64,000 bases of DNA from Macrostomum lignano. Taxonomy: Eukaryota. The DNA is taken from the NCBI GenBank assembly GCA_002269645.1, contig NIVC01003894.1, positions 1 to 64,000 of the forward strand, written 5' to 3'. The notes under the pieces were generated by a model. That model had not been told where the DNA came from. It made no database searches and worked only from the letters and a program-made list of their open reading frames with translations. The translations under genes were made by a program, and so were the position numbers. Below, one piece after another: positions 1 through 64,000 of this stretch. Numbering within the stretch: the first letter of the stretch is position 1; every line of letters starts with the position of its first letter.

Positions 1-970
1 TCTGCGTTGCGTTTGATTTTCATACCGCGTTCCTCTTCGCTACAAATATCTCCGCCGAATATACCGTCACAAAGTTTGATGACGAGGAGTGTGAACGCCA
101 CGAACTATTGCTCCAGAGCTTTGTTCCCCCGTTTTCGACTCACCCTCAAGCCTGTTCCACCTTGCCTCTTACCAACTCCGCTACCACTTCTGGTCGACCT
201 GGACGCGCCATCGCGGCAGTTCTAGAGGTCAGGCCATTGAAGCTCATTTCCTCACCCTCCCTCGGTTCCACCGGGAACATATAGTTGGCCACCCCGACTT
301 TACCGACGACCCTGTTTTGACGTTAGCGACTCTCCTTGCCCCAAACTTCTCGCCTCCGCATACGGTGGTCGCCCTGAGTGATTCCCCCCCCCCATAAGCC
401 GCAATTTCTATCGCCTCAGCATCAGCCCCCCTTGGCCCTGTAAATATACTATACTCTCTCATTGTCTTTTGATCGTAGTCTCATTTCCAGCTCACCTTCT
501 GTTACTTTAAACTGCATGGTGTAAACACTACTTTGAAAATGATCATTTGATCGACAAAAAATATAAAAATTTAAAACCTCAAAAAACGCACGTCTCCATT
601 TACTCTTCTTCGCTTCATCTATGCTAGACTATTCACATAGTATTTTCGTAGCCTGCGACAAACTCAAAATGATCATTAGATCGCAAAAAAAAATAATAAA
701 ACTTGAAAACACAAAAAACAATACCATTGCTTATAGTTCATTTCGTACAACCCGTACTGCTCTTATCATGTTAAAGTTACAAAATGATCAGTCCGATCAA
801 TAAAAATTATAAAATTTTCAAAAAATTAAAAAATAGCAAATTTACAAAACTACAAAAACATTACTCTACGCTTGCTTAAAATTATGAAATCAACCCCCCT
901 AGCTGAAACTCGTCAGATAGTTCAAAATTCAAATTCGAAATTCAAAAAGCCAGAACAAATTCTCAGAAGA

Positions 971-1214
971 AAACTGCCGACTTCAAAAGACTAAACTGCC
1001 GACTTCAAGAAAAAGAAAACTGCCGACTTCAATGATACAAATTCGATTTTATTGGCCACCACTGATGTCCGTCTAGTCCAACATTCAGGAGCTCCTTTAT
1101 CAAATTCAGTTTCAAAGTTTCAGAACCGATCAAACGGCAGTTCAATTCAAGATTTCCGAGTTCAAAATTTCAAAATTCAAAGTTTCAGAACCAATCAAAA
1201 GGCAGTTCAATTCA
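971..1214 (+). repeat. Short direct repeats in the retroelement 5' leader
   Basis: aaactgccgacttcaa x3 (971-1032); tttcagaaccratcaaamggcagttcaattcaa x2 (~1117-1150, ~1182-1214). Confidence 0.8.
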
Positions 1215-1417
1215 AAATTACTTCGATTTTCAAAGCTCGTCGCAGATCACAGTTAAAAAATTACACAGTCTCTCTTTTTCTCCCTTCCCCAGCCAGTCCG
1301 CCAACCGCAACCCTGAAAGCCATTGCCGTTTGCTCACTTTGAATTTGACACTCTACTTTGCTATTAGTTACATTTTGTGCTATCGTTGCCTTGAAATTAT
1401 TGATTGAATTCTTGTTA

Positions 1418-3262
1418 ATGACCACACCTGTCCGAGATTTACGTTCCGGACCAGTTTTTCAAAGCTCAAATATTAACAGACCCCCTGAACAAAATTTAGA
1501 AACTTCTGACTGCCAAATAGGTGAACAGCTCCCACGAAATAGTTCACCAGTACCTAACCTGTTTATACCAAATAACGTTGAGTTTAATAACCCTCTCGCG
1601 GATCATTTTGAACACAACCGTGCACACTCACCAGCACCCAGCTCCATCCTAACAGACGCGGACGAAACAGTTCAACCAGCCCCAAACGATATTGCTGAAG
1701 AATCTACTCTAGATATGGCTGATCAGGACGGCGCTCCCCATGTTGATGCTGCAGCGACAAATGCTGTCCGTGAACTTACTGACGTTATGAACCGCAGTCT
1801 GCAATTGCAATCAAACCATCCCGTCTCAGCTACTGCTCTTGCTGAAATTCGTCAATCCCTGAAAGGAATCGACCAAATGCATGACTTCCGCTCCTTCACT
1901 GAAGAGTTCGACTTGATCACACGCTCCTTTGGACTATCGGAGAACGCAAAGATTCGGCTCTTCCCGCGACTACTGAATGACCTTCTTAAACTCGAATACA
2001 GTCGCCTCTCTGCCGCAGTCCAAGCCTCTTATCCAGCCACCATTGAGGCACTGTCTCAACGCCTTCGGGAAGTAACCATTGGCTCGGCTCTAACGCTGCA
2101 TAATGCAACAACCCGGAAACAACAGTACGGCGAACCGTTCCTGTCTTATTTCACCGATATTCGTCGAAAGCTCAGGTCAGCTATGCCGGAAATACCGGAA
2201 GAATTTCCGGAAGGTGCCGGTCCGGAAACACCACCCGCGAACCAAGCTGTCATCGACCAGCGCAACCGAGACTTCCTTGCTACCCTGATGGCTACGACTA
2301 TCAACAATGCTCTACCCTACATCAAACGAGAACTCTTGAAGCAAAATATCACCACGGAAAGTACGCTAATCAACAAGGCCATCCGCGCCGAACAAATCCG
2401 CGACTCCACCATGGACTCTGATGGCACTGACTTGAAAGCTCTCACAGAGCGTCTAACTACCTTAGAAAAAACGACGAAGGAAGCCAATCAGCAGGTGGTT
2501 GCCTCCCTGCAAACACAAACCAAGCCACCTATCGCTAATATGCAACAGAAGCCCACTTGTTATCATTGCGGTCGACCTGGACACTATGCCGCCGACTGTC
2601 GTCGAAGGAATGACCAACAACCTCGTCCCTTCCGACCTAACTCAAGTGATCGAAGGAACACAGCCCAATACGGCTCTGATGCCCCGCGAAATCGTTACCA
2701 GCAGGGACCGCCACGATTGACCTGTAACTATTGCCGAAAACCAGGACACTCTATTAACCAGTGCCGACTACGAGCCCAACGTACACAAGGCTACGGTCCA
2801 CCGGCGACACAACAATCACGATTTCCACCCCGTCAAGACTATGGAAACCGGCCTCAGCAACGCTATCCGCCTCGATACAACGGCACCAACAATCAACGAC
2901 AACCTCCGAGATTTGCGCAACAACAATATCCACCGATACGCGCCATCACTGCTCAGGACCCTGAAACGTCCCACCCAGGATGGAATCAACAGCCGCAGAT
3001 TGGATGGACGACTCACGACGCTCCCGAGTCTGCCCAACTGATGCACATTGCTACAGTTGATGAACGCCCACCGACTTTTGGAAACGAAATTCGCTACTCT
3101 GGAGACGCTAAGCAGCTGAAATCTTTACTCAAAAAACCGACTACTGCCGCTGCGACTATCAACTCTATTCGCCTTTGTACGGTTGAAAGAGTGACAAACG
3201 CCTACACTCCACCGACCAGCAACAACAACCGCGAGAAAACCGTGAAAGCTTCCGTCGGAATT
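1418..3262 (+). CDS. gag: Gag (capsid-like region plus two CCHC zinc knuckles), N-terminal part of polyprotein
   Basis: In ORF 1358..3961; first ATG at 1418. CYHCGRPGHYAADC (2558-2599) and CNYCRKPGHSINQC (2723-2764) in Q/P/R-rich context. No stop before the env segment. Confidence 0.9.
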
Positions 3263-5907
3263 CGCCGATCACTACTGACACTTTTTCTCCTGTGCCTAGC
3301 AACTTCACTCTTCGCACTAGCCAACGCTACGCCGATAACGACGTCAACTCCACCATCGATTGAGAGACAATCTCACGAGGGCTTCATTGACACACCAATG
3401 GTCTGTCCGTACAACCAGATCCCACGAATTTTCACGATACCACATGAGATCCGTTGTGAACAGCTCAAACACCAAACGACGCCGACACTCCCGTTGAAAC
3501 TGGAACTTTACACAACGAACGTGGAAACCAGTTCTCTGGTTATGACTGTCTGTTTCCGCGAGAAAATCACTATCAGATGTGATAAGGCGGTGATAAGAAC
3601 CTGGACATCCGCCCTGGTAGAGTTGGAACCGCAACCAGTCACTCAAGCTGATTGTGAAAACTGGGCACGAACAAAGCTATCGCCTGATGGATCATTAGTG
3701 TTAAAGACTGCGTCAACTCAGTCTATCCAACGCCTGCAATCGACATTCAACACGCAAAATGCTGTGCGTTGCACTCCTGGTTCACATTCAGAACAAATAG
3801 TAACAACAGTGATCACCGGAATCCCAGCCTACTCAACAGCAGATCAAAAAATGGAATCTTTGTCCTTCCCAATGGACAACTGCAAACTCGCCGACAAATT
3901 TTGTACAATTAAAACAACTGCACAAGAAATGCGAGCTTTCAACCTACCTTTGCCATACTAACATCCCCCTGGGATCCTTTGGAAACTGAAGCAATCTACC
4001 AAATTGACGTGAAAGGACCAAGACATCTAAATCTTATTTGGACACCTCCACCACTCGCTGATTGTCCTTTAAAACCATTTCGTACTCTTGAAGGCAACTT
4101 AAACTCCGGCTTGTTCTTAACTAATGATCAAACATTGGGACTAACCTTCAACCCAGTGCCGTCGACTCACACTCTCACCTGCACTGGCGTCCGTAAGACG
4201 TTGTACCTTTCAACGCAAGGTCTATACGTAGACATCCTCGACAACAAAGAAGCAGAATTTCTCGCCACCTTACGAAGCCCATTAGAAGAAGCTACTCCAA
4301 AACCTCAAACTAGCGAAGAAACCACTTCTTCGAGACAAAAACGTCGTTCACCACCAGCGATACTACCAACGCCACCAACAATATTACCCGTTCAGCAATC
4401 GACGACTCAACATCCTTTCACTACGACAACTCAGTCACGACAATTCCTACCGCCGCAACCTTTACGACAAGAGCGACCTGATCATCCACCGACGTCAAGC
4501 ACTTCTACAACAATGACGCCAACAACTACGATACTAACTACTACAAAATCAACACCAACAACTACAATTTTGACAACGACAACACCACCGACTACAACGA
4601 CAACACCACCGACTACAACGACAACACCACCGACTACAACGACAACACCACCACTACGACGACAATGCCACCGACTACAACGACAACAATACCTACCACA
4701 ACCGTAACACCGACAACTTCAACAACCACCACTGCTACAACCTCAGCAGCAACAACGACAGCAGATTCAACTACGACGACTACAAAAGTGACGACACAAC
4801 CTCGTACCACCACCTTACCGCCAACAACCTCTAGCAGCACAACCAGTGCACCAGCAAAGTCTGCAACCTCAACCCACACGAACTCACCAGCGACAACAAC
4901 CAATCCACAACTGGCTTCTATTCACACGAATCTAGCAGTTCCACATCACGAACCACAAGGCAGTCAACCGGATCTCCTACTACTACCACGCAACAAGCGA
5001 AGCACAGATGACAAAACCATCGCAGCCCCTTCAGGCAACTCTACTGCGCAACTTTCATCAACGTTCGCATCCGCTGAACTTCTTGCTGGACAACTACAAG
5101 GAGCTGCTAGTAAAGCTCGAAAAGACCTTCTCCAAGTACAGAAACAGCTGGCAACTACTCAATGCATGATGTACGCAACTAATCTCAAGTACAACCGACA
5201 GCTATACTACACACAACCAACGCTTGCTGCTCGACTCTTATTAAATGATCCTTTCCTGCGAGCTAGATCCATTGCTGGATACCTCTTCGTCTACCAGTGC
5301 AAACCTCTACACAAATTTCGCTTTGTCCAACCAAAGTACAAGACGAACCAATGCTTCACGCGCCCCCCACTGGAATTCCGCCTACAAAATTATACTGTTC
5401 TTGGATTTTTGGATACAACGACTCGTATTGTCTCCACAGCTACTCCAGCTCTAATCTCATGCGACGCCTTCCCATACTACTACCTGCCTAAACAATCGAT
5501 GCTATTCAAGACCACACTAAATTTTTCGAGATTTGAACCCACAACCGCTAATGTCAGATCCGATGAAAACTATCGTTGTCCGATTTGCAAACTTCCGTCT
5601 CCGAAAGCATCTTCAAACCTATGGGAGACATCAATTATACTTCACTTCGTAGCCCAATAACGGTGACCGACCTAATGCACCAGTTCATGCAAACTCGCGA
5701 TTTTCTGATTACAGTTTTCAAACTTCCGAATCGAACACGACACAGAACAGCACATGCTGACAGTGCATTCCTGGACTCAAAACTAGCTCTCTCAATCTAT
5801 GGTCTTCGTCGATATTCAACTGGGATCGACTAGTCGCAAACTATCAAGAAAAGTTCGTCTTAACAGCAGCTGTAATCGTCTACATTGCCGTTATTATCTT
5901 CGTGTGC
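3263..5907 (+). CDS. env: Env-like class III (herpes gB-like) glycoprotein, split by four frameshifts
   Basis: Signal peptide RRSLLTLFLLCLATSLFALANA (3263-3328); Cys-rich ectodomain; furin sites RQKR (4333-4344) and RNKR (4989-5000); gB-like motifs QPTLAARLLLNDPFLRARSIAGYLFVYQC and CFTRPPLEF...GFL; TM FVLTAAVIVYIAVIIFVC (5854-5907). Confidence 0.8.
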
Positions 5908-7395
5908 AATCTTGGCCGACTCTGCGTCGCCAGCACCATCCGGTACGGCAGAACGCACACTATACAAGTGCTGCGGCAACAACGAACTCCAACTCGAGTG
6001 GAATCACGAAACGACTACTCCCAACAACAGCAACTGATACCACCGAGACAAGCGCCAACACCCTCGGCACCCATCGAAACGATTGAACTTCGTGCCACCC
6101 TTCCGCCACCACGGAGACCACCGCCAGAACCTAAAGTTCCAAAATGGCCAGCAAACTACTCATACGCCTTTGTTTTGAAGCATCTAACAACAGCAACTAT
6201 GATCAACCTGTGGTGCCGCAACGCACCGCATACTCGACACAGATGCACCGCCCTCATTGACAGCGGCGCCTCGATCTCCTGCATCTCACCGGCATTCGCC
6301 AAAAAGCTTCGAGTACCATTACAAGACACCAACATGAACGCCATTTGTGCAGGAGGACAACAACTAAACCTCAACAAAAAGGCTACTTTTGATCTCGAAA
6401 TCGATGGACGCAACCACAAGATATCGGCCTTTGTGCTCGACACCCCCGACGCTGACTATGATTTGCTCTTAGGAGTAGAAACCTTTAAGTCACTGGGAAT
6501 ACCACTACAATTCGACTACTCGAAAGCGACAGCTAAGCTTGGCAATGAGCAATTTGCGATGCTCAACTCCATCCAACAGTTGCAAGAAACCTCTGCGGTG
6601 ATGCAAAACAAGCTAGAGTTACCACCACAGACAACGCACCAAGTCACGCTGAAACTCTCTTCTCGACATGAGCCAACGATTCCTGTCCTGTTCGTCCCTA
6701 AGGACCACACGATCCAGAAACACCAGTTGATGATACCAACTTGCCTTGTTTCTGTCAAGCCGGACGGACAAACTATCACTGTGGAAATTGCCAACCCGTC
6801 GCTGACAACGCAAACCTTGCATCCTCAACAAGTCATTGGAAATCTGGCTAACATGTCTGACTACAACATCGTGCGCCCAGCAGCTCAAATCAACAGTCTC
6901 CGCACGCTGCAACAAGAAGCACCTACGACTGACATGATCCGTACTCAACTCAAACAAGCCAACCAGCACCTCTCAACCGAGCAGAGTGAACAATTAGTTA
7001 CTCTAATGAACAAGTACCGTGACGTCTTGGCACTACTGCCAACCGACATGGGTTGCTCTACCCAATACACGGCTCACCTGCATCTACACCCACACTCTGA
7101 GCCAGTCACGTCCAGACCCTATCCAATCGCTCATGGACTACAAGAACGGTTTGATGAGCTCATCGAAAACTTCCGTCAAAAAGGAATCATCAGTCCGAGT
7201 GAATCGGAATACTCAAGTCCATGTCTTCTCGTGGAAAAGAAGACGCTCGACGCTCAAGGTCGCCGACAACTAAGACTCGTGACGGATTACCGAAAACTGA
7301 ACAAGCTAATTCGTGCTCCTAGCATCCGACCTCCTAAGATTCCGGATTTGCTACATCGATTGAAAACGCTAAACTGTACACACTCTGTGACCTAG
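5908..7395 (+). CDS. pol: Env cytoplasmic tail/linker, aspartic protease and N-terminal RT
   Basis: ALIDSGASISC (DSG 6259-6267), DLLLG, then RT N-terminal motifs RPYPI, SPCLLVEKK, RLVTDYRKLN. The frame is open from 5761 and includes the env TM. Confidence 0.92.
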   Translation, partial: NLGRLCVASTIRYGRTHTIQVLRQQRTPTRVESRNDYSQQQQLIPPRQAPTPSAPIETIELRATLPPPRRPPPEPKVPKWPANYSYAFVLKHLTTATMINLWCRNAPHTRHRCTALIDSGASISCISPAFAKKLRVPLQDTNMNAICAGGQQLNLNKKATFDLEIDGRNHKISAFVLDTPDADYDLLLGVETFKSLGIPLQFDYSKATAKLGNEQFAMLNSIQQLQETSAVMQNKLELPPQTTHQVTLKLSSRHEPTIPVLFVPKDHTIQKHQLMIPTCLVSVKPDGQTITVEIANPSLTTQTLHPQQVIGNLANMSDYNIVRPAAQINSLRTLQQEAPTTDMIRTQLKQANQHLSTEQSEQLVTLMNKYRDVLALLPTDMGCSTQYTAHLHLHPHSEPVTSRPYPIAHGLQERFDELIENFRQKGIISPSESEYSSPCLLVEKKTLDAQGRRQLRLVTDYRKLNKLIRAPSIRPPKIPDLLHRLKTLNCTHSVT

Positions 7396-8460
7396 CAGAT
7401 GCTTTCTACCAAGTTCGGATCGATCCAGAAAGCACAAAATACACTGCGTTCATTGCACCCAACGGCCTACTTTGGGAATTCAATCGACTACCTCAAGGAC
7501 TCAAGTCCAGTCCTAGCTTAATGTGCCGTCTTGTAGCATTGTTAACAGCTGACTCTCCAAATCAGATTGCCTACTTGGATGACGTCATGCTCATCGCCGA
7601 AGACTTCACCGGCATGCTCAAAGAAATCGAACGCTTCTTCCAAAAGTTACGACATCATGGATTGCGAATTTCACTACGAAAATGCATCTTTGCCAAAACA
7701 GAGGTACAATATCTTGGATTTGTGGTTTCTGCTCAAGGCATTAGACCCGCACCCAGCCTCATCGAGAAAATCAAGACCTTCCCTGTGCCTCAAACGGTTA
7801 AACAACTACAATCTTTCCTTGGACTTGCAAATTTCTACCGAACGCACATTGCTGGCTACTCACGAGTAGTACAACCACTTCTGAGTATCATCAAAAATAC
7901 TTCGAAGCCTAACAAATTCGTCTGGACGAACGCCGCCCAAGCAGCCTTTGAAAAGCTGAAACAACTTCTCTCTACGGATATACTACTGGTTCATCCAAAT
8001 CCGCGAAAACCGTACTTTCTGCACACTGATGCTTCGGATACCGCCATTGGAGCAGTACTCTCACAGCTAGACGACAGCAACCACCAACGCCCGGTTGCCT
8101 ACATTTCTAAGACGTTAAGTCCAACCGAACAACGCTATCCACCGATTGAACGCGAAGCATACGCCATCTATTGGGCAATAAAGAAGCTACACGTGTTCCT
8201 CTACGCCTCTTACCAACAATTCCACGTCTTCACTGATCACCAGCCACTCAAGAGTCTATTCAGTGACAAGCAACCTATCTCAAAACGACTTCAGAAGTGG
8301 ATTCTAGCGCTACAAGATTACAACTTCACTCTCAACTATGTGAAAGGCAAATCAAACGTAGTAGCGGACTGCCTTTCACGCATCCCCAAAGTCTGTCAGA
8401 TACAATCGCTGTCAACATTCAACGGACTGCAGGATGCCATTGATCAAGACCCATTACTGT
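7380..8460 (+). CDS. pol: Reverse transcriptase core and RNase H
   Basis: DLADAFYQV and FNRLPQGLKSSP (same frame, upstream of ORF 7521), YLDD, YLGFVVS, LHTDASDTAIGAVLSQ, EREAYAI, FTDHQPL, NVVADCLSR. Confidence 0.95.
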
Positions 8461-9856
8461 CTACACAATCAAAGCGCTTCTATCGGAAAAATCACCCACT
8501 CACGAGCTGTCCAAGAAAGACCAACAATATGTTCGCCGACAACTGGCACGTTATTTTCTGGATGGAAACACTTTATACTTTGAAGATGACGAAGGACGAA
8601 GCCGCCTCGTGATACCAACACGCTATCGTGAAGCTCTTTTGACAAGCAACCACTCGACAGCCCTTGGTGGTCATCTAGGTCACCAAAAGACAGCAGACAA
8701 AATCAGTCACTTCTATTACTGGCCTACACTACGACAAGATGTCTACAATTTCGTTAACAACTGCGAAGTCTGCCACAAAGCGAAAACAGCACCCGTCTAC
8801 GACCGCTGCACAAAGCCGTCAAATTCAACGAGGTTTTTTCTCATTTGGCTATCGACCTTGTAGGACCACTGCCACCAGCTTCCACGGCCGCGACGTCTAC
8901 AAGTACATACTCACGGCCCAATGCGGCGTTAGCAAATTCCTGTTCACATCCCGCTAACTGAGACAACTTCTGCAACTATCTGCAACAACCTCTTCAACCG
9001 TGTGTTCGCTTTCGCAGGACTACCAGCACACATCATCTCAGACAATGGACCCCAATTCATCTCGCAAGAATTTCGAGAGTTTATGGGTGCCCTTGGAATA
9101 CACCTGATCTACACCTCGGTGTACCAACCATCCAGCAACTTCGTCGAACGCGCACACAAGACACTGAAGCAAACTCTTACGGCCTTTGTCCATGACAAAC
9201 CAGATCTCTGGATTGACTTCCTACCTGCGGTGACACTAGCAATCAATACCGCCACACACTCAACGATGAATGAATCACCATTCTACTTGTTCTTCGCTCG
9301 AGACTTTCTGCCACCCAACGCACGGATCATGGAACACCAGACAACTGCATACATGGACGTTATTAAACCAGTCAATTTGACCTGTTCAGCTATTTTGCTT
9401 GCCAGAGAAGTCGCCAAGGAACTTCTGCACAACTCAGCTGAACAGCGCGCTGAAAACTCTGATAAGAAGACCAACAGCCGCTACATACGCCCCGGTGCAC
9501 GATGCTATTTAGATGTCTCAGCGACGAAGGAGACAAAATTCTCCAATCCTTATCGTGGCCCAATGCGTCTACTAGCATGGCTCTCCGATCAGAACGCACT
9601 GATTTCTGATGTCAACCGGCCAAGCGAACGACCAATCGTGGTACATGCCTCCAAGCTCAAACCATGGCCTGGAGATGGACTCAGCGCTGGACCTAGTCAC
9701 CTACCTGAGTTCACAACTGATGACATTCAGGTCCACCACAACCATCGGCCGCCATTGAGCAAGTCCATCGCGCTGCAAACCACGTCTACTGATGAGCCAC
9801 CAGTTCAGCCACAGACGCACGGCTACAACCTAAGATCGAAGAACAAGAAGTCGTGA
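8461..9856 (+). CDS. pol: Integrase (frameshifted)
   Basis: HHCC finger (HSTALGGHLG...CEVC); LAIDLVGPLP in the frame at 8845; IISDNGPQF; NFVERAHKTLK; C-terminal YNLRS. Assembled from four frames. Confidence 0.92.
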
Positions 9857-10158
9857 ATGATAAAAAATCTTCTAAATTTCTTTTCTCCTTTCTTTTCCTT
9901 GACTGACAATATTGCTTTCTCTTCCTTTCTTTCTCTTCCTTTTTTCTTTCCTTCTTTTCTAGCTTTTGCTCTCTCTCCCTGCATTGCGACTCTTTACGTG
10001 ACTACGAGTATTGACGAACTGACACAATGAACTTTTATTTTCCGTTTTATCAACAAAAGCTACAAAAATTTCTCTCTTTTCCCTCTTTACATTGCAGAGC
10101 TCACACGCTAAAACAATATTTTGTGTATCTATTGCTTTTCTCCTTTTTCCTTTCTCTT

Positions 10159-11088
10159 ATGGATCCATTTCCGCAACCAGTGGATATTCGACCACAGTTA
10201 AATCATGATCTTATTTGCCTCGCAACCGTTGTTGCTTGGTTCACTGAAGCAATATTTTATTCTGAAACTATTGGTGAACCCCAACGGCTACGCATGGCCT
10301 CCGCTTTCTTCTCTCGTTTTTATGTTATCCGCTGCCATCGCTTTTATCCTAAGATGCTCCGCGTTCTACGAATTAGTCTATTTGGTCTGCTGCGTCGTAC
10401 TCACTCACGACCACGTATACAGAACTTTTCTCCCACTATGACTGACGTTCTCAACCGCAGCTTCGTACCAATCCTACATTTTCTTTTTTCTCCTAATATG
10501 TCTATCGACGATTTCTTTCAACTCTCTGCTTCTACTCTCCCTCAACCATGCATGCGCTTTAACCAAGACACTTGGCCTCTGTTGCTTTCCTCTCTACGCT
10601 ACCCATGGCAACAATTCCGCCATGATGCTGCTAATCTTTCGGCGCAACAGTTAACTTCTACGCTCCAAAATTATTTAACCTCCTTCGATTCTCTCGCCCC
10701 TTATGTTTATCAAATTTTTCCTCCATTTTCTCCTCGTGCTACTAAGAAAGCTATGATACGCACGCTCAATCGTTTGTATCCGCACAATTTTTTCTTTACC
10801 CACGCTGTTTTCATTCTCTCAACGCGTTCAAGAAGCTTTGCTTTTATAATTATCGATTTTTATTCTCGCTCGGTAGTTGCCCATACTATTTTTCCTTTCT
10901 CTTGTCCTCCCTTCGTCGATATTTATACGATATTCACCGTATACGAAATGCTCTTGTTGGCTATCCTAACACCTTGCCAGAGTACGCCACTCTTCATACC
11001 TTCTCCATCAAGCGTATTCAACATTCTCCGCCTTCTGATCCTAATATTAATTTTGCTCGACTGGCATACGCTCTTTTTTATGACTTGA
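10159..11088 (+). CDS. Accessory ORF of unknown function downstream of integrase
   Basis: ORF 10027..11088; ATG at 10159 follows a pyrimidine tract; ~310 codons open, lying inside the element before the PPT/LTR. Confidence 0.6.
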   Translation: MDPFPQPVDIRPQLNHDLICLATVVAWFTEAIFYSETIGEPQRLRMASAFFSRFYVIRCHRFYPKMLRVLRISLFGLLRRTHSRPRIQNFSPTMTDVLNRSFVPILHFLFSPNMSIDDFFQLSASTLPQPCMRFNQDTWPLLLSSLRYPWQQFRHDAANLSAQQLTSTLQNYLTSFDSLAPYVYQIFPPFSPRATKKAMIRTLNRLYPHNFFFTHAVFILSTRSRSFAFIIIDFYSRSVVAHTIFPFSCPPFVDIYTIFTVYEMLLLAILTPCQSTPLFIPSPSSVFNILRLLILILILLDWHTLFFMT

Positions 11089-11299
11089 TTCACCATCATC
11101 GCTCACTATTTTAATCCGCTTTTTCTTCAATATTGAGCGCTGAAACACTACAAAAATTGTTCAAAAATACTAAAAAAAAAATATTTTCCGTTCTTCTGCC
11201 TATTACTCCTCCGCTCTTTTGCGCTCACTTGTGTAAAGCTTACGCTATTTTTCTCTGTTATTCTGTCAACTGCTTTTTCAAAAGTCATCACGCGCTAGC

Positions 11300-11353
11300 C
11301 TGCTCAACCCTGCTCAACCCTGCTCAACCCTGCTCAACCCTGCCCAACCCTGA
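11300..11353 (+). repeat. 10-bp tandem repeat (tgctcaaccc) x5
   Basis: Directly visible. Confidence 0.9.
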
Positions 11354-11559
11354 CCTACACGACTGCTGCTCTGTGCCTGGTCACTGCCAATTGCTGTCTC
11401 TGGCGCTGCTTCAACCGGATTCAAGCCACAACCTTGATCTACGCAGCCATCGCCCTACACTATGCCTGGTCTCTGCAAATCGCTCTGTCCCTGGCGCTGC
11501 TTTCACCTAAGTCAACCAACTAGCACTAAAGCATACGGCTCAACAACGTTTGTTCCTTC

Positions 11560-12003
11560 ATGACTGCACAGTCTGCTTATCTGACAACTTCGGCATCACA
11601 TCAAGTGGTGGCCCTGAAAAGGGCCGTTGTTGCGTTCAGAAGGCCGGACGAACCAGCAAAGCAGCTCGGCTCTTACACCACCGACTCCGCTGGCGGCGCC
11701 TCCACATCTTCTACCGCAGTCGACGCTCCAGGCGCGCCCGACCTGCAGCAGTTGCGCCGACAACAACGACAGCAACGGCAACATTGGCACAGCAGCAGCA
11801 GCAGCACCAGCACTCCCAGCACAGCGAGAAGGACGAGCGTGATCGCCCACCGCCTGTCGCCAAGGTCCCAATCATCTTGGGACCGCTTTGCTAAGTCGCC
11901 TAGCAAAAACCGAAAGTTCTTCCTTGTGCTCATGATGAATCGAATTTACTTGATTATTAACCGTCAGTCAAAAAATCGCTTAACTCGCCTTGCTCCATTT
12001 TAA
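11560..12003 (+). CDS. Possible second small accessory ORF (S/T/Q/R-rich)
   Basis: 147-aa ATG ORF in a GC-rich island inside the AT-rich 3' region. Overlapping ORFs in other frames make the true frame uncertain. Confidence 0.3.
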   Translation: MTAQSAYLTTSASHQVVALKRAVVAFRRPDEPAKQLGSYTTDSAGGASTSSTAVDAPGAPDLQQLRRQQRQQRQHWHSSSSSTSTPSTARRTSVIAHRLSPRSQSSWDRFAKSPSKNRKFFLVLMMNRIYLIINRQSKNRLTRLAPF

Positions 12004-12575
12004 AGCCTTGTGTTATATACCCCCTTTGGACTGTACAATTTTTCCTAGAATTTTTATCTTTTTCGTTTCCCCAGTTAAAATTTTAACCTCTACTTTGTAC
12101 ATGATTTATTAGCTGAGCGGTTCCTCGCTAACCCCCCCCCAACTTTCGATGTACAATGATTTTTATTACCCTCCTTTTAACTCACCGCGTTTTCACTTTA
12201 AGCTTGCGTCGCTAAACCTCCATTTTGCTCTGTACACCCATTTTATCGATTTTTTGGTTACCCTCGCTGCGTTTTATTCCATCCTTGCTTAGCTAGTTTA
12301 GCTTAGCCTAACTAAAGGCCCTCTGCGCTATCCCTTCTTTCGCTATTTAAACTGATGTTGTACTTTAACCTATGTTACCTTGCTTAAATTGGTTCCCTTT
12401 TACTCAAACATTTTTGCTAACATTATTCACTGCGAACTATTTTTTCTGCGACAACTTTTCTCGTTCACTACAATGCGTTATCTTTTTCTGCAATTTTATC
12501 AATTTTAACCCCCTACTATTCTTTTTCTGTTTTTATGCGCTCGGAGGGCCTCGCTTCCCCGAAAAATAGAGCGAA

Positions 12576-13093
12576 TGAAGTGATACATTTTGGCTCTAGA
12601 AAGCTCCCATCCAGATTGAATGTATTTTAACCAATGAATGCGCTCCAAATAGCAAAAGCTGAGGACACGACCCCAACCTCAACCAATGAAAAGCAGTTAT
12701 GTACCATCCAATGCGATCAAGACTGAAAAGTACTATAAAAGCTCATGTTAACCAAGCAAGAAGCTCCCCCTTTTTTCTGCTCGCTCCGCCTCTCCACGCC
12801 CTTGCCTCTCCTTCGCCATTCTCCTAGCTTACCTCGTTTGACTATTTTGATTGACACAGTTAGGGTCTCAACCCAAACACCAAAACTTATAAGTCGACTT
12901 ACTAAAGCCAAACCAACACCCAATCCACGTTTCACAATAGACTGAACCTTCGGTTCATCCGAACAACTAGAAACACCTTGTGACTTAAATCGAACGAGCT
13001 TCTTATTTGGAATTCCACCTTAGACATTATATTTTGTGAGAAAACATCTCGAGATTGTGACCATCAAATACAACGGTCTGTAAGTTACCATCA
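12576..13093 (+). repeat. Putative 3' LTR
   Basis: Purine-rich gaaaaatagagcgaa (12561-12575) followed by TGAAG; three CCAAT boxes; TATAAAAG at ~12735; ends ...TTACCATCA. Ends are uncertain by ~15 bp because no second LTR is available for comparison. Confidence 0.55.
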
Positions 13094-14672
13094 AGTGTTT
13101 GCATCATCAGGAAAAGTCAGTTGAATCCGCCGCCTCAGTTATTTGGCTCTCACATTGATATTTGAAGTAGAACAAGAGCCATAGAAGTGAGAGACCAGAA
13201 GAAGAACAATAACATATATTTTAAAATATTTCAATTGCTTCAGAAAAAAGTCAAAATGAAAAAGGATAAACTTTAAAGACTATTTAAAATTTAAAATATA
13301 CTAAAATAGAACTCTTTAAAATCAACTAAAGATTAGTAAAATGTTGTTTTATCAGGTGCTGTTTTGTTACAAGATTTCAAAGTACAATTTAGGAACTAGA
13401 ACTAAAAAACCACATTGTCATCCTTAATCTGTCAATTGCACTGTGCATATACTACAAAACATAGCTACCACACTAGCTAAGTAGTGGGCCATATTGCGGA
13501 TTGTGTTATATATATGCCAGAAAGTATCTGGCTATCTAGTAAATTTGTATGCCAATAAAATATGCCAATTAAGCCCTCTAGTAAATTGTATACCAATAAA
13601 AATGCATGATTAATAAGTACAAAAACTATGTAACAAGCAATGCTTAGCATGCCAAAAATAAAATTATTGTAAAAAATAAAATAGAAAACGTGTATCATTT
13701 AAAAAAACGAGAATAATTAATAAAACAAAATATTTATGTCTTTTACTAATTAAGGCATAGTTCCTTATAGAAAATTTAGAATATTGTTTGAAAATTCAAT
13801 TTAATGTCATAATTTTGCAAATTAGTTGTGCTAGTGTATACTTCTGTTAACTATTCTTTGTGCCTGAAAAAATGCTTACGATTCATACACATAAAAAAGC
13901 CAATTAATAACCATGTTAAATTTGTGCGCAAACTAGAAACTAATTTTAGCCTTGTTTTACTATGCAAAATATTATCGATAAATATTTTTTGTTATAAACA
14001 TAGCCATCTAGACAGTATATATACGAGCCAATTTTTGCCCAAATATACCCTACTTGCTAAACTCACTAACTTGCTGCTTGCTCTTAGCTCGTTCATTCTA
14101 TATTCTCAGATAAACTTTGAAACCTTATTGAGTTAGTCATTTTAAGGAAAGAGGGAGTTACAGTGCTCAGAAAATTGCTAAGAGAAAGGATTGGGGAAAT
14201 ATACAATTGAAATTCAGAGTAATTGCCGAGACCCTCTAGTCCAGGTAACGCCCAAGAGAGACTGAAGAGACTGAAGAGAAAGAGAGTAAAAATACATCCA
14301 TACTAGTGCTAGACTGCTCAGGCCAAATGATATATTAGATGCTACCAGAATTATACATTAAATGCTACCCTAGAATATATGGGATTCTAAGAAACAAGTA
14401 GGAATTTAAAGGAGAAGAAATACACCCATGACAACTTGTTGGCAATTAGTGGGATAGTTAGAGGACAGAGGTTAGCCCTAGGACATAATTTTTGTGCACC
14501 AAATTGTTTAGCATAATTTATGCAATGATTTCATATATTTCAATGCTTTTGTATGCTGCGCCAAAAGCTTGAACAAGTATAGCTAAGAATTGTAAACAAA
14601 TGATTGTGCATGGTGGTTGTATTTCCTACGTTTACACTAGATGTATGCCAGACAAAGCATTTATATGCCATA

Positions 14673-22489: not shown

Positions 22490-23426
22490 GCAACATTGGG
22501 ATCAGACTAGGGCTCACCAGTAGTGGGATCAGACTGGGGCTCACCTTGATGCTGCAACATTGGGATCAGACTGGGGCTCACCTTGATGCTGCAACATTGG
22601 GATCAGACTGGGGCTCACCTTGATGCTGCAGCAGTGGGATCAGACTGGGGCTCACCTTAATGCTGCAGCAGTGGGATCAGACTGGGGCTCACCTTGATGC
22701 TGCAGCAGTGGGATCAGACTGGGGCTCACCTTGATGCTGCAGCAGTGGGATCAGACTGGGGCTCACCTTGATGCTGCAGCAGTGGGATCAGACTGGGGCT
22801 CACCTTGATGCTGCAGCCGTGGGATCAGACTGGGGCTCACCTTGATGCTGCAGCATTGGGATCAGACTGGGGCTCACCTTAATGCTGCAGCAGTGGGATC
22901 AGACTGGGGCTCACCTTAATGCTGCAGCAGTGGGATCAGACTGGGGCTCACCTTGATGCTGCAGCAGAGGGATCAGACTGGGGCTCACCTTGATGCTGCA
23001 GCCGTGGGATCAGACTGGGGCTCACCTTGATGCTGCAGCAGTGGGATCAGACTGGGGCTCACCTTAATGCTGCAGCAGTGGGATCAGACTGGGGCTCACC
23101 TTGATGCTGCAGCAGTGGGATCAGACTGGGGCTCACCTTGATGCTGCAGCCGTGGGATCAGACTGGGGCTCACCTTGATGCTGCAGCATTGGGATCAGAC
23201 TGGGGCTCACCTTAATGCTGCAGCAGTGGGATCAGACTGGGGCTCACCTTAATGCTGCAGCAGTGGGATCAGACTGGGGCTCACCTTGATGCTGCAGCCG
23301 TGGGATCAGACTGGCTCACCTTGATGCTGCAGCAGAGGGATCAGACTGGGGCTCACCTTGATGCTGCAGCAGTGGGATCAGACTGGCTCACCTTGATGCT
23401 GCAGCAGAGGGATCAGACTGGCTCAC
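22490..23426 (-). repeat. 37-bp tandem array (~25 copies) filling Rpt1 intron 2
   Basis: Sense unit GTGAGCCCCAGTCTGATCCCACTGCTGCAGCATCAAG; some 35-bp variants. Confidence 0.97.
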
Positions 23427-23879
23427 CTTGATGTTGCCCCTGGGGTCGAAACCGTCCAGCTGGTTGATGAGCTCCAGCATGGTCCGCTGCACCTCATTGT
23501 CGCCACCGGCGCCATCGTCGAAGCGGGTGCCGCCGATGGCGTCGATCTCGTCGAAAAAGACGATGCAGGCCTTCTTGGAGCGGGCCAGCTCGAACAGCTC
23601 GCGCACCATGCGGGCGCCCTCGCCGACGTACTTCTGCACCAGCTCGGAGCCGATGACGCGAATGAAGCAGGCGTCAGTGCGGTTGGCCACGGCCCTGGCG
23701 CAGAGGGTCTTGCCGGTCCCGGGCGGGCCGTACAGCAGAACGCCTTTAGGAGGCTCAATGCCCAGCTGCACGAAGCTCTCCGGGTGCAGCAGCGGCTTTT
23801 CGACGACCTCGCGCAGCTTCTCGATCTGCTCCTTGCAGCCGCCGACGTCAGAGTAGGTCACGTCCGGCTTTTCTTCCAC
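23427..23879 (-). CDS. PSMC2: 26S proteasome regulatory ATPase Rpt1, exon 2
   Basis: Walker A GPPGTGKT, Walker [27 protein letters not shown]; bounded by AG and GT. Confidence 0.97.
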
Positions 23880-23955
23880 CTGAGCGGGCAAGGAAACAGA
23901 CTGGTGAAGCTGGGGCGCACACGGCAAAGCGTAAGTTTTGAGGCCAATCATAAAG

Positions 23956-24210
23956 AGGCTGGGGCAGCATTGCATGCTGAAGAACTGAGGGCTGGGGCAG
24001 CAATGCATGCTGAAGAACTGAGGACTGGGCAGCATTGCATGCTGAAGAACTGAGGGCTGGGGCAGCAATGGATGCTGAAGAACTGGGGCTGGGGCAGCAA
24101 TGGATGCTGAAGAACTGAGGGCTGGGGCAGCAATGGATGCTGAAGAACTGAGGGCTGGGGCAGCAATGCATGCAGAAGAACTGAGGGCTGGGGCAGCAAT
24201 GGATGCTGGA
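23956..24210. repeat. 33-bp tandem array (~8 copies) in Rpt1 intron 1
   Basis: Unit gctggggcagcaatggatgctgaagaactgagg. Confidence 0.92.
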
Positions 24211-24263
24211 CTAAGGGCAGGATACCTAATACTCGAAACGAAGCACATGGGTTCTAATCGCAC

Positions 24264-24761
24264 CTGCATCATGGTGACGCTGGGATCAATTTTGGGCGGC
24301 AGCGGGATGTGGATCTGAAATTTGTTCCGGTCCACGCCGACCCGCATGCCCTCCTCGATGTCGGTGGGGGCGACGGTGTCAGCCAGGTTGGAGACAAACT
24401 TGGCGTACTGCTTCACGTTGATGATGTACTTCGGGTCGTCTGAATCCGCGTTGATGATCTTTGTGCAGCGGGCCACCTGCAGCGGGGTCTCGTTCTGCAG
24501 GGCGAGCTTGTCCGCTGCCAGGTCCCAGTGGGCGGGCGGCGCCAGGCCCGTGTCGGACTCCTTGATGCCCGTCAGCTCGATGACTCGCTTCATGATGGCG
24601 TCCATGTCCTCCTGGCACTTCTTGGTCTCCTCGCTGTACGGAGCAGCGCCGTAGGTCTTCATCAGGGCGATGTCGCCCTCGTCCAGGTCCTTGGCGGGCA
24701 CGGCGGAGGCTTTGTCGTCCTCCTTCACCTTGCGCTGGTCGGCACCGAGGTAGTCGGGCAT
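24264..24761 (-). CDS. PSMC2: 26S proteasome regulatory ATPase Rpt1, exon 1
   Basis: [11 protein letters not shown]...[14 protein letters not shown]...[11 protein letters not shown]...[10 protein letters not shown]. The three exons total 434 aa. Confidence 0.97.
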
Positions 24762-26644
24762 GTTGAGACCGCTAAGAGCTGAGGAGCAGGAGATAAGCGC
24801 GAGTTAGAGAAAGTTGTGCATTGGGGATCTGACAAAACAAGAAAGATTATTGTGTCTCATTTAAATCTGGATAAGATTTAGTTGTGCATATTGACTCACT
24901 GGCTATGTGAAACAGTCACTACATATAAAAAAGTCATTGCATATAAGTTTAAAACAAGCCACTAGCCAATTATGCTATAAATTTCTAGTGTAAAATAAAA
25001 ACTTATGATTTCTTGGGTTGCTGGGAATTCCCGGTGCTGGGAGAGGGTGAGGAGACCAGTTCAAGCTTTGGTGCCGCTAGAGATTCAGTCTTAAGTCATT
25101 TTTTTGTTCGCTGTTCAGCTCGTTTTTTGCATTTGGCTTTGCTACTGAATTTTCAACTTTTGTTGTTATATTGATAATCTGTTTGGTTGATTTGGTTTAT
25201 TATGTTAAATTGCATTGTTTTTTTTCTGCGTTTGCGTTTGGCATTTTTTGAGTTTTTGCAATTCTCATCATTTTTTTCAGTAATTGGGTTTCATTTTCCA
25301 TCCCGTTTCGAATTGACATATTATAGTAAAGTCCAATTAGTTTATCCGCTTCTTTCCTAGAGAATTGTTTGTTTTGGTTATTGTTAAATTTATTTAATTT
25401 CACTCAATATATCTCATTTCAATTGAGTTCACCATAGTTACACCAAATATACGAGTATTTTCAAAATTGGTGTTAATATTCGAAGGTTAATTTCTGAGAA
25501 AAATGCTTCCCATTTTTGGGGGAGTGTCACATTCTTTGGTGCATGCATGCTAGTGGAGTGGTTAACTCTATTTTCGATTTTTTATTATTAGCCTATAACC
25601 ACCCCTCTCCATCAGTCTTTTCCTATGTATGCACTTGTGAGGGCGGCAACGTACTTGTAGACTGCCCAGCTAGACAGCAAATATATATCAGCCAGGAGGC
25701 CACTGGCCTGAGCACCTTGCGCTTTCTTAATTGTTATTTTTACAACATGTGCCTGGGCACATTTAGCCTAAAAGCCTTGGTTGGTAAGTCACACATTTAA
25801 AACCATACTAGTTTACATTGGCCATGCAACTTAATTTTAAAAATACTTCTTTACTCCAATAGCCAGTTGCAACACTCAAATGTTTTATTTCTTTTTCCCC
25901 ATGCATTGGTCATGCATATTGAGAACTTTTTTAATATAAATAGAATCAATTGTACTTGCAAAATTGAAAAAATGTCCTAGAATAAATTTATTATGATCAA
26001 GACTATAAGCCAAAAATGGTAGAATACAAATTGTGGCTAAAATGAGATTATAAATGAAATTAAATATTTTTAGACTAGTGCCCAAAGTTAAGATAAATAT
26101 TATACTTTTCAAATGACAATCTTTCTTAGACAAAAAGACTTACTTAAATAAGAACTCTAGACAAAATATCTTATACTCCACTTTAGAATATTTGTCTGAA
26201 ATTGTTTCTGAAATCTACTGCATACCCAAAAAGAACTCATTTTTAGCATATTGGATTCCATTAGTATTAAAGTTAATTAAACCATATACCTTTTCACTTT
26301 CAGTTTTGAAATACCAGCAACCAACTTTAATAGGTTTGGAATCTGATTCTGCCCCTTTTTGGCTGTGGCAGCTTTGGTTTTCAACCAGTTTCAACAAACT
26401 ACAATACAAATTTAATAGTTTGCATGTACTTCCAACATACAGTGAATCAGTTCTAACAGCTGCCAACCTATTCCATTAAGTACAATTTTGTAAAGCATCT
26501 TTTTCAGCCAATTGTAACAAATTATAATGGAGGTCTCATATTTACTTTGGTTTAAAAAAAGATGCTAGATTTCATTGAAGAAACCATTAAAACAAACTTA
26601 AGTGTGACTTTAGCTGAGTTGAAAACTAGATTATATACTCAATG

Positions 26645-53746: not shown

Positions 53747-54373
53747 TCTAACCGAGTAGACGGCTATGTGATCAGCCAGTACCACAAGCTCAGGGAGCTG
53801 TTTGGCCGCTATGAGACGGCCCATTCGGTGGAAAGCCAGTTTCGCGTTGTGAGTTTTTTGAACTATAAAAGCCATTTAATTGAAGAAAAACCAAACTAGC
53901 TCTGAATGAAGAATTGAGTTTCAGCCATGACTTGTGCCCCTTCCCTCGTGCAGGCCTCGCCAGACACAGCCATCTGCTCCGAGCATAGCGAAGATGAGCT
54001 GGCCGCGGATGCCAACACTGTGAGTGGAGTGCAGCTCGTTTCTGCTATCGTTTTTTTGCTCATTTTTATATCAAAATAATAGATTTTTATATGGATATTT
54101 TGTAAGAAAATTGTCATTTGGGAGCTGGTGAATTCTACAGTGGTTGGCATCCGGCTGAGTCGTACTAAAACTGCCGCTCAAACCCCCCTCCCCCCAACTA
54201 AACAGTTGCGCATCCTCAACTCTGAGCTGGAGCAGCGCGACCTGGCAATTCAGAAGCTCACGGCGCAGGTCAAGTCGCTATCGGCTGTCAACGAAAAACT
54301 GAACATCGACCTGGAGATGCAGCGGACTGTCGTGTTCGAGGAGATGAAGAACCTATTCGACAAAATTTCCAAG
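53747..54373 (+). CDS. Giant coiled-coil gene, small exons 53747-53848 and 54206-54373
   Basis: AG/GT boundaries, all phase 0; SNRVDGY...QFRV / LRILNSELEQRD...DKISK. Confidence 0.7.
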
Positions 54374-54458
54374 GTTCTCTAACACTGTTCTGACCGTTGG
54401 GATTTCATTTTTTTGTTTTACTGTTGATAGCAAAAAATATATTCTAAATTGGCTTCAG

Positions 54459-63400: not shown

Positions 63401-64000
63401 TGCAAATTGAAGAGAAACTCGCAGATGCTGAAAATCGAGCTTTTAACTTTCAACAACAGCTAGAGACTCGCTCATTGTCTAATCCATCCGGTTTAGATCC
63501 TAACTGGGGAGATTCTCTATCCTGCAAGCCCTTTGATGACGAGACTGAAGCAAGTCCCACATATTTGAAAAATGCGTTGATTGAAGTTGCCGCTGAACGC
63601 GACGTTCTCGCACAAGATCTTGCAGAAATTCGTAGAGAGGCAAATGAACTGGAGTCTAAAAATGTTCTGTTGTCTGAGCAGATAAGACAACAAGACGAGT
63701 TGATTTTAAGTTTAAATTCGGAAGTAGATAACAGAGATGTCGAATTGAAGAGCAACGCTCTGAGTTAGAAAGTAATAATGCTCGGATTGAGTCTCTTTTG
63801 TCTGAGACAAAAGATTTAAAGGCAATTGTTGCCAGACTAGAGACGGATTCATCCTTTTTCCGTGAATCTTTTTCAGAGGAGCTTAAAAATCTGACGAATG
63901 CTTATTATACTGGTTCAGATACCACTGTCATTACGGCAAATGCTTCTTCGCAAACGGATAATCAAGAATCTAACGAAGGCACTACTTTGTATAGTCAATG
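54459..64000 (+). CDS. Giant exon of a >3,100-aa coiled-coil/S-T-D-A-rich repeat protein (three 1-nt frameshifts; runs off window)
   Basis: Acceptor cttcAG at 54458. Frames 54459-~57995, ~57996-59555, 59557-~63748 (open although the ORF track starts it at 62152) and ~63749-64000 (EQRSELESNNARIESLL... open to window end). Confidence 0.8.
59160..62150 (+). repeat. Coding 66-bp (22-aa = 2 x 11-aa) repeat, ~45 copies
   Basis: DASTSAKLEFA-DASSGLSEERV consensus with DASSSATKESI variants. Confidence 0.95.

Follow-up and report, generated by a model that had tools for sequence, protein, structure and literature searches.

A retroelement at the start of a 64,000-nucleotide stretch of Macrostomum lignano DNA (contig NIVC01003894.1; the whole stretch is referred to as the window) raises the question of whether Gag, Env and Pol can be encoded as one polyprotein with Env in the middle and, if so, how such a chain would be threaded through a membrane, cut and packaged. 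Its domains follow one another in the order Gag (with two CCHC knuckles), internal signal peptide, class III Env, transmembrane (TM) helix, protease (PR), reverse transcriptase (RT), RNase H (RH) and integrase (IN) (Table 1), and by its sequence features it is a Ty3/gypsy LTR retroelement (Metaviridae) of the GAG-ENV-POL gB-type. The Pol order PR-RT-RH-IN, as defined by Pfam, is that of Ty3/gypsy; LTR termini (TG...CA), a PBS-like site, a polypurine tract (PPT) and a short target-site duplication (TSD) are all present, and the solved structure nearest to the RT is that of Ty3 RT (E 4e-59, with foamy virus at 1e-33 and MLV-type enzymes at 1e-28, a ranking by E-value). The RT motif is YLDD, not YVDN. 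The PBS-like sequence is TGGTTCCCTGACC, which we take to correspond to tRNA-Glu. The start of Gag lacks a Gly2 myristoylation signal, its capsid part gave no Pfam gag match above threshold, and no Rfam match was found in positions 1-14000 of the window. An earlier note on this DNA had delimited the element as 1418-9856; these positions do enclose the coding core, but the full element (~16.9 kb, with a 658-bp LTR) ends at the 3' LTR given in Table 1 and starts ~3.5 kb upstream of the window. In a sister copy, the one insertion for which the full flanks were read and on which the TSD is based, the 5' and 3' LTRs are 99.85% identical and are flanked by a 4-bp TSD. The element is young, multi-copy and recently active.

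Table 1. Features of the element in the window, with the basis for each call.
Feature	Position	Strand	Basis
Accessory ORF-A, 3' part, broken here (269 aa from ATG in sister copy)	2..397	+	copy comparison
Gag region, ATG 1418	1418..3262	+	capsid-like part 46% identical to sister-family protein P0003
CCHC zinc knuckle 1	2558..2599	+	Pfam zf-CCHC E 3.4e-8
CCHC zinc knuckle 2	2723..2764	+	pattern CX2CX4HX4C
Internal signal-peptide-like segment with a hydrophobic core, a basic N-side (+4) and A-N-A at its end	3263..3328	+	Kyte-Doolittle 2.1, charge count
Env N-half, predicted class III fusion and PH-like domains, ends in furin-like RQKRR, break ~3960	3329..4347	+	sister-copy model
Thr/Ser/Pro-rich mucin-like spacer flanked by two furin-like sites, internally broken here	4348..4988	+	sequence
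Furin-like RNKR followed by the C-half of Env, with gB central helix, PTLAAR motif and 4 sequons; broken twice here	4989..5853	+	profile matches
Env TM helix, basic C-side (+3)	5854..5907	+	hydropathy, charge
Pro-rich cytoplasmic tail/linker, TM to protease (114 aa to DSG motif)	5908..6237	+	sequence
Aspartic protease, DSG at 6259	6238..6489	+	Pfam PF13975 (gag-asp_proteas) E 5.3e-8
RT (YLDD 7572) plus RNase H; approximate start, broken at ~7390	7130..8321	+	Pfam RVT_1, RT_RNaseH
Integrase: H2C2 zinc domain and rve core, stop 9856, broken here	8612..9856	+	Pfam PF17921 E 5.6e-19, rve E 1.9e-8
Accessory ORF-B, orphan (362 aa in sister copy)	10027..11114	+	copy comparison
Polypurine tract	12561..12575	+	sequence
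3' LTR, 658 bp, TG...CA	12576..13233	+	copy comparison

The window copy is split into eight stop-free pieces, with breaks in seven of the 22 intervals tested (at ~3960, in the Thr-rich repeat at ~4500-4700, and at ~5570, ~5790, ~7390, ~8450-8600 and ~8850-8950), and the evidence for a polyprotein therefore comes from other copies. The coding region also contains eleven slippery-type heptamers. The frame at 1349-3961 runs without a stop from the ATG through both knuckles into the signal segment, as the earlier note had described, and on into Env; that at 5761-7395 had been said to join the TM helix to protease and RT, and it does carry the helix, the protease and the N-terminal part of the RT, but the YLDD motif lies in the next frame. 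The proposed chain of ~2,800 aa is likewise found in other copies and not in this broken one. All 22 intervals are open in the majority of the sister copies scored, and the most widely shared frame break occurs in at most 6 of 20 copies. The Gag-to-signal junction is open in all five copies scored, that from signal to Env in four of four, further short stretches in three of three, and the TM-PR stretch in 12 of 21 copies, where each of the 11 break sites occurs in at most 4 of 20. Across Env, TM and PR, 21 of 29 matches, the window included, are full-length at 95-100% identity, and at one sister locus no stop interrupts the 4,403 bases that lead from Env to RNase H (1,467 aa). Complete frames were found for 15 of the 137 Env matches in genome G000, where a single frame of 2,461-2,866 aa without stops holds the Gag, Env and IN matches (a count made by pairing the three match tables by eye); these loci belong to more distant families, with an Env 53% and 27-28% identical to that of the window. 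It counts against the polyprotein that, within the window's own family, every copy examined is interrupted somewhere, and that the longest frame there reaches 2,086 aa. Among database proteins, P0003 (2,852 aa) has the Gag-Env-Pol order and P0019 and P0027, from other sources, are Gag-Env-PR fusions, whereas P0005 and P0018, being chimeric gene predictions, do not enter the count of independent full polyproteins.

The pattern of the breaks bears on their origin. One-base changes account for 108 of the 136 private indels in the middle region, singletons make up 101 of 141 frame-changing sites in coding DNA versus 8 of 57 in a non-coding control, and indels show a slight excess at homopolymers (75 of 229, background 0.25), which fits assembly error and decay alike. 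In the window copy, the breaks are best read as one-base indels dispersed along the element, due to assembly error or post-insertion decay, and not as programmed frameshifts. Env is under purifying selection, with pN/pS values of 0.12 and 0.11 in one copy pair, in which PR and RT gave 0.05 and 0.06. Since the intervals are open in most sister copies, no break is widely shared, Env is selected and 15 loci are stop-free, the polyprotein is genuine and not the product of a chance insertion, and the single Gag-Env-Pol frame with Env as an integral part, as put forward in the earlier note, holds.

Judged from profiles and predicted structures, Env is a class III glycoprotein resembling gB and nyamivirus G, with its ectodomain between the putative signal peptide and the TM helix. 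A profile of the C-half (A1) matched gammaherpesvirus gB in the PDB (E 5e-11) and Env matched the G protein of San Jacinto virus (E 2e-8); for the C-half, Pfam Monjiviricetes_fusion appeared at E 0.003, under the cut-off, and Pfam gave no above-threshold match to the Env halves of the window family. Foldseek placed a nyamivirus/rhabdo-like G first for a sister-copy model of the N-half (E 5e-10), for which VIA returned HSV gB (Z 6.9) and Chandipura G (Z 6.7), values within the chance range and tied with those for PH domains. For a model of the whole P0003 ectodomain, the top Foldseek matches were HSV gB (E 1e-13) and nyavirus G (E 9e-22). Weighing against the assignment, the fold matches are local, with TM-scores of 0.17-0.30, a model pTM of 0.44 and N-half VIA Z-scores below 8. 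The ESM Atlas leads for the N-half were viral glycoproteins, all below 0.9, with none for the C-half, and word-index protein searches yielded weak blanks, both for the C-half against longer proteins (0 of 4,716 candidates) and for profile A2 (only itself, 1 of 4,713). The mucin-like spacer of a sister copy is 254 aa long, with 68% S+T+P, and a hydrophobic segment similar to the internal signal lies at the equivalent place in P0003, P0005, P0019 and P0027.

This gene order has relatives. Nematode elements have reportedly been found in which gag, env, pro and pol form a continuous ORF and Env is nyamivirus-like, and these are said to be restricted to nematodes. Such nematode non-canonical ERVs, metaviruses with an RNA-virus glycoprotein, have Env before Pol, to judge from the title and from their citation in a later paper (Sacco et al., 2022, doi 10.1099/jgv.0.001739; PMC13524379). 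The earlier note knew of no characterisation of the layout, but planarian Burro elements had already been described as carrying an in-frame env with gag on one side and pol on the other (Arkhipova and Yushenova, 2019, PMC6431247), and GAG-ENV-POL 'errantiviruses' of HSV/gB type have been reported from Nematoda, Bryozoa and Platyhelminthes (Chary and Hayashi, 2026, eLife, PMC13524379). As in the latter group, the window element combines a Ty3/gypsy Pol, LTRs, a PBS and many near-identical copies with an Env between Gag and Pol, the gB-type ectodomain of which is flanked by a predicted signal peptide and a TM helix. The main text of that paper describes the ORF order without the terms 'polyprotein', 'single ORF', 'same ORF', 'fused' or 'frameshift', and its supplement 1 has nine flatworm rows, the one with LTR data listing an LTR of ~864 nt, a length of ~10.6 kb and another PBS, as against 658 bp and 16.9 kb here; the window family may be among its unlisted hits (PMC13524379). 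Burro/GYPSM1 also resembles the window element in having one polyprotein with Gag and CCHC knuckles, an in-frame env and PR-RT-RH-IN, together with accessory ORFs, and its env matches mononegavirus fusion glycoproteins; it is larger (4,873-5,140 aa, >30 kb) and has BIR, BCL2, MATH, ankyrin and dUTPase-like domains, and the account of Burro in that paper does not discuss membrane topology (PMC6431247). None of these extra Pfam domains was detected in the ~2,800 aa of the window element. Atlas virus, a hookworm belpaovirus, also carries Env within one polyprotein (2,828 aa), and the fusion activity of its Gc has been demonstrated, but it is a BEL/Pao element with a class II fusogen and the order Gag-Pol-Env, in which Env is last and Pol is not on the Env tail (bioRxiv 10.1101/2021.11.23.469668).

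Beyond what is observed (the domain order, one frame in the lineage, a class III Env under selection, and the LTR, PBS, PPT and TSD), this Ty3/gypsy GAG-ENV-POL element is probably made as one ~2,800-aa polyprotein that is threaded through the ER and then cut. Threading with Gag and Pol in the cytosol is compatible with hydropathy, charge and conserved protease-like sites. The topology is based on a hydropathy scan and charge counts: two natural frames, jointly spanning Gag to RNase H, have one strong internal hydrophobic segment each, with one further segment upstream of the ATG, and the basic flanks of the two internal segments lie on the predicted cytosolic sides. At the threshold used, the signal segments found in P0003 and P0027 escaped the scan, which counts against the model. 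Gag would be synthesised in the cytosol, after which the internal signal sequence would start ER translocation and signal peptidase would cut at its A-N-A end, leaving Gag held on the membrane by the signal remnant, in place of a matrix or myristate anchor. The ectodomain would be glycosylated in the lumen, two furin cuts would release the Thr-rich spacer, and the TM helix would halt transfer, so that PR-RT-RH-IN would be made in the cytosol as the Env tail. Budding would collect membrane-bound Gag and Env-Pol at ~1:1, and the protease, once dimerised, would cut at I/V-N/H/Q-x-I/L-like sites to release Gag, PR, RT and IN. In two families, candidate protease motifs can be aligned upstream of Env and of RT, downstream of PR and close to the boundary of RH and IN, although two of the seven in the window family (LMHIAT and NYSYAF) have no clear counterpart in P0003, which counts against such processing. 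Alphavirus, flavivirus and hepacivirus polyproteins have an internal signal after the capsid protein, luminal cuts by signal peptidase and furin, and a cytosolic viral protease; their enzymes are unrelated and their fusogens are of class II, making this an analogy and not membership. That flavivirus-like threading yields an enveloped particle, with a signal-peptide anchor for Gag, Pol as Env tail, a ratio of ~1:1:1 and a mucin-like shield or secreted peptide shed by furin, is a more tentative proposal, which we place a little below even. Among the open-access papers searched, none was found to state or test this threading model, or to test the topology or processing of such a polyprotein.

Retroelements normally need Gag in large excess over Pol, with which a 1:1 ratio conflicts, and another expression route may therefore exist. 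Most Gag and Pol could be made from the same genomic frame without Env, by splicing, signal skipping or cytosolic processing, giving env-less intracellular particles with excess Gag and leaving the threaded form minor. Besides the usual Gag excess, the position of the signal, 618 residues into the chain, where SRP recognition may be leaky, would favour this route, as would candidate protease sites on both cytosolic sides of Env; but a simple pattern search found no pyrimidine-tract/AG acceptor just before the signal or between TM and PR. For the lone env-less copy, on contig C1861, a clean loss of Env by excision or splicing was considered and rejected: that copy has a 4.3-kb deletion (window ~3520-7829) with 2-base microhomology and without GT-AG ends, which retains the signal segment and also removes PR and most of RT. 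We regard this route as unlikely, though it is the strongest of the alternatives.

Much less probable is a set of separate ORFs for Gag, Env and Pol, linked by programmed frameshifts, with the window's breaks as true ORF boundaries. The window copy and most of its sisters are indeed broken several times, but the breaks are scattered, lie inside domains, vary by copy and are never found in more than 6 of 20, and the 15 loci have no break at all; programmed frameshifting at domain junctions is thus largely refuted. Hardly any weight attaches to Env being a recent independent insertion, of an endogenous viral fragment or a nested element, into an ordinary Gag-Pol copy. The likeness of Env to glycoproteins of nyamiviruses and related RNA viruses implies its capture at some time, yet it occupies the same place in the 21 full-length matches and in families down to 27% identity, and is in frame and under selection. 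The sole env-less copy, moreover, has the same 3' flank as an env-bearing copy, so Env was lost after insertion or in assembly. The comparison of sister copies thus refutes an independent insertion for the window family, and the threaded polyprotein remains the preferred reading.

As the gene order is already in print, the locus does not reveal a new layout; it is a compact, young, multi-copy example of a published one. What is added is the Thr-rich spacer between two furin-like sites and the two orphan accessory ORFs: ORF-A has no Pfam match, and ORF-B, for which a word-index protein search gave a weak blank (0 of 2,633 candidates), is under purifying selection (pN/pS 0.21-0.39 in five pairs). 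Several families in one genome, with Env identities of 27-100%, have kept the single frame together with the two hydrophobic segments and with cleavage-like motifs that match, and this set makes tractable the question of how Gag and Pol are produced and packaged with the ectodomain of a membrane protein in between. If the threading model is true, Pol would enter particles as the cytoplasmic tail of the class III Env, so that the enzymes could be carried only by particles with Env. Together with a Gag anchored by a signal remnant, such packaging would offer a different solution from Gag-Pol frameshifting and from budding driven by matrix.

Both junctions named in the earlier note, from Gag through a signal segment into Env and from the transmembrane (TM) helix into protease (PR) and reverse transcriptase (RT), are present in the window sequence. 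One frame runs from the gag start codon through two CCHC knuckles and a hydrophobic segment into a Cys-rich domain of about 210 residues; another holds the TM helix, the aspartic protease and the N-terminal part of RT. RT/RNase H (RH) and then integrase (IN) follow in the Ty3/gypsy order, and Ty3 RT is the closest solved RT (E 4e-59). The proposed single polyprotein is borne out by other copies and not by the window copy itself, which consists of eight stop-free pieces; 7 of the 22 intervals tested are broken in it, through either assembly errors or decay. The Env-TM-PR stretch is fully covered by 21 of 29 matches, the window included, at 95–100% identity. Copies were compared singly, each from a separate locus, some being alleles or duplicates, and an interval was scored as open or broken where its anchors aligned and otherwise left out. 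For every one of the 22 intervals, open copies outnumbered broken ones (Gag-signal 5/5, signal-Env 4/4, TM-PR 12/21, RH-IN 10/19), and three further short stretches that start in the nucleocapsid region cross the signal and enter Env with no stop. Comparison of 20 copies with one open copy revealed 229 frame-changing indels at 141 sites, 101 of them singletons, as against 8 of 57 sites in a non-coding control; no site was shared by more than six copies (four between TM and PR), and 108 of the 136 private indels in the middle region were one base long. One locus, running from Env to RNase H, is stop-free across its full 4,403 bases (1,467 aa); among the copies examined of the window's own family, none had an uninterrupted frame over its whole length, the longest reaching 2,086 aa.

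In related families, 15 of 137 Env matches lie in stop-free frames of 2,461–2,866 aa that also hold Gag and integrase matches (match tables paired by eye, frame arithmetic checked for six). P0003, a 2,852-aa database protein from a sister family, has the whole Gag-Env-Pol order, and P0019 and P0027, from other sources, are Gag-Env-PR fusions. For one pair of copies, pN/pS was 0.12 and 0.11 in the Env halves, 0.32 in the spacer, 0.19 in TM plus tail and 0.05–0.06 in PR and RT, and Env is by these ratios under purifying selection. Absence of Env from most sister copies, which the earlier note had named as counting against its reading, was not seen; Env is lacking in a single copy (L061), where an in-frame 4.3-kb internal deletion fuses early Env to the RT/RH region and removes PR as well. 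This copy shares its 3' flank with an env-bearing one on contig C1325, and its lack of env is a deletion that arose after insertion or in assembly. As judged from sequence, the Gag-Env-Pol polyprotein is real, because sister copies keep the intervals open, the breaks are scattered, related families have open frames, Env is under selection and the env-less copy is a deletion; the structural claim of the earlier note is thus upheld through other copies.

Locations of features (window positions unless another record is named; G000 is the genome record searched)
Feature	Location	Remarks
ORF-A	2–397; locus L002, 7978–8787 (-)	269 aa; Cys/His-rich N-part; gag's strand, upstream of gag
Gag-signal-Env frame	1349–3961	ATG at 1418
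Signal segment	3263–3328	ends A-N-A
Env N-half	3329–4347	
Thr-rich spacer	4348–4988	254 aa, 68% S/T/P
Thr-rich spacer of P0003	residues 1026–1195	170 aa, 54% S/T/P
Env C-half	4989–5853	
TM-PR-RT frame	5761–7395	
TM helix	5854–5907	
ORF-B	10027–11114	after integrase
Gln/Ser-rich ORF	11560–12003	140–157 aa
LTR	12576–13233	658 bp, TG...CA; defined from one copy, both ends examined
Env-less copy (L061)	G000:C1861:83600-84500	
Tandem pair (L010, L015, L044, L045)	G000:C172:394418-417399	14,279 bp apart
Open frames in related families	C3, C106, C247, C270, C583, C669, C717, C1470, C1639, C1672, C2112, C2565, C3126, C4280, C4296	15 contigs of G000
26S proteasome AAA-ATPase subunit gene	23388–24803 (-)	intron-containing; assigned by eye
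Low-complexity coding region	54348–63768 (+)	very long; 66-bp (22-aa) tandem repeat, >40 units; coiled-coil-like end

Similarity between copies ends sharply at window position 13233 (...TTTCA), with 14 different 3' flanks among the 17 rows listed (16 copies). In the single copy with both ends examined, which is about 16.9 kb long, the LTRs are 99.85% identical and flanked by a 4-bp TSD, and the family has been inserting recently. A PBS-like TGGTTCCCTGACC, which we assign to tRNA-Glu, follows the 5' LTR, and a polypurine tract lies upstream of the 3' LTR; the window starts about 2.9 kb into the internal region. In the C172 tandem, the PBS directly adjoins the first copy's 3' LTR, so this LTR is common to both copies, and the second copy has a leader seemingly about 1.8 kb shorter. 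The main frame has an orphan ORF on either side. ORF-A, preceded by some 2.4 kb of non-coding leader, has no Pfam match and a pN/pS of 0.73, from 12 changes only. ORF-B (pN/pS 0.21–0.39) matched neither Pfam nor the protein database; its 27 matches in G000 are each at least 60% identical, and none is on contigs of the 53% sister family. The Gln/Ser-rich ORF between ORF-B and the polypurine tract is kept in many copies and has no significant Pfam match.

At an E limit of 0.001 the Env C-half matched 26 proteins, including San Jacinto virus G (E 2e-8). Pfam Monjiviricetes_fusion was matched by 7 of 15 scanned C-half hits (E up to 0.001), the query itself falling below the cut-off, and a profile including the C-half found herpesvirus gB among PDB structures (best E 5e-11). 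For the P0003 ectodomain, modelled at pLDDT 61 and pTM 0.44 with a disordered spacer, gB hits ran through the whole PDB list (best E 1e-13), and nyavirus G ranked top among viral models (E 9e-22); TM-scores were low (0.15–0.30). The predicted structure of the window-family N-half alone matched nyami/rhabdo-like G (E 5e-10); its Z-scores against gB (6.9) and Chandipura G (6.7) are inside the chance range, level with PH domains. Taken together, the sequence, profile and structure-model matches point to a fusogen of class III rather than to an Env of the retroviral or F type. More distant Gag-Env-Pol groups, with Env 53–55%, 32–34% and 27–28% identical to that of the window family, occur on many contigs of G000 and are included in the 137 Env matches. 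In the database protein P0015, the Env C-half is followed by an Upf1-like helicase (AAA_11).

The elements of Sacco et al. (2022) reportedly have a continuous gag-env-pro-pol ORF. A 2026 survey (PMC13524379) credits these authors for the nematode elements and describes gB-type ENV in the order GAG-ENV-POL in Nematoda, Bryozoa and Platyhelminthes; the layout is thus already in print, and its novelty, suggested earlier, is not supported. The window element has the tested features of this group as that text gives them, and differs in size and domain content from Burro, a giant planarian gypsy element with in-frame env. Atlas belpaovirus has one 2,828-aa polyprotein with Env at its end (bioRxiv 10.1101/2021.11.23.469668). 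Our element probably works like these known Env-in-polyprotein elements. No paper stating or testing membrane topology was found in the literature searched; subscription papers, figures, the sequence repository and repeat databases may bear on this point.

A hydropathy scan of the natural frames picked out a single strong hydrophobic segment downstream of Gag and another upstream of PR. The signal segment is basic on its N-side (+4) and the TM on its C-side (+3), a tendency found in relatives for the signal (4/4, +2 to +5) and the TM (3/4). Two furin-like sites bracket the Thr-rich spacer, which may be a shed mucin-like shield, and the Env C-half has four sequons; the more distant P0005, P0019, P0027 and P0011 have one furin-like ectodomain site and no comparably long Thr-rich spacer. 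Gag lacks Gly2. Motifs of the form I/V/L-N/H/Q/R-x-I/L, which we take to resemble Ty3 protease sites, occur in the predicted cytosolic linkers, and P0003 has similar motifs in line with most of them. The internal signal would probably direct translocation, and a signal peptidase cut would leave Gag tethered to the membrane. Env would mature in the lumen, and stop-transfer at the TM would return Pol to the cytosol on the Env tail, where it would stay because two membrane crossings give the needed parity. Stoichiometry is the weak point of this threading model. A Gag:Pol ratio of 1:1 is unusual, and therefore additional Gag may come from splicing or from skipping of the signal. A crude splice-acceptor pattern had no match at the junctions. 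Threading of the polyprotein would have the protease release the enzymes after budding, and we consider assembly by this route, with the Env tail bringing Pol into the particle, a serious possibility that stops just short of being probable.
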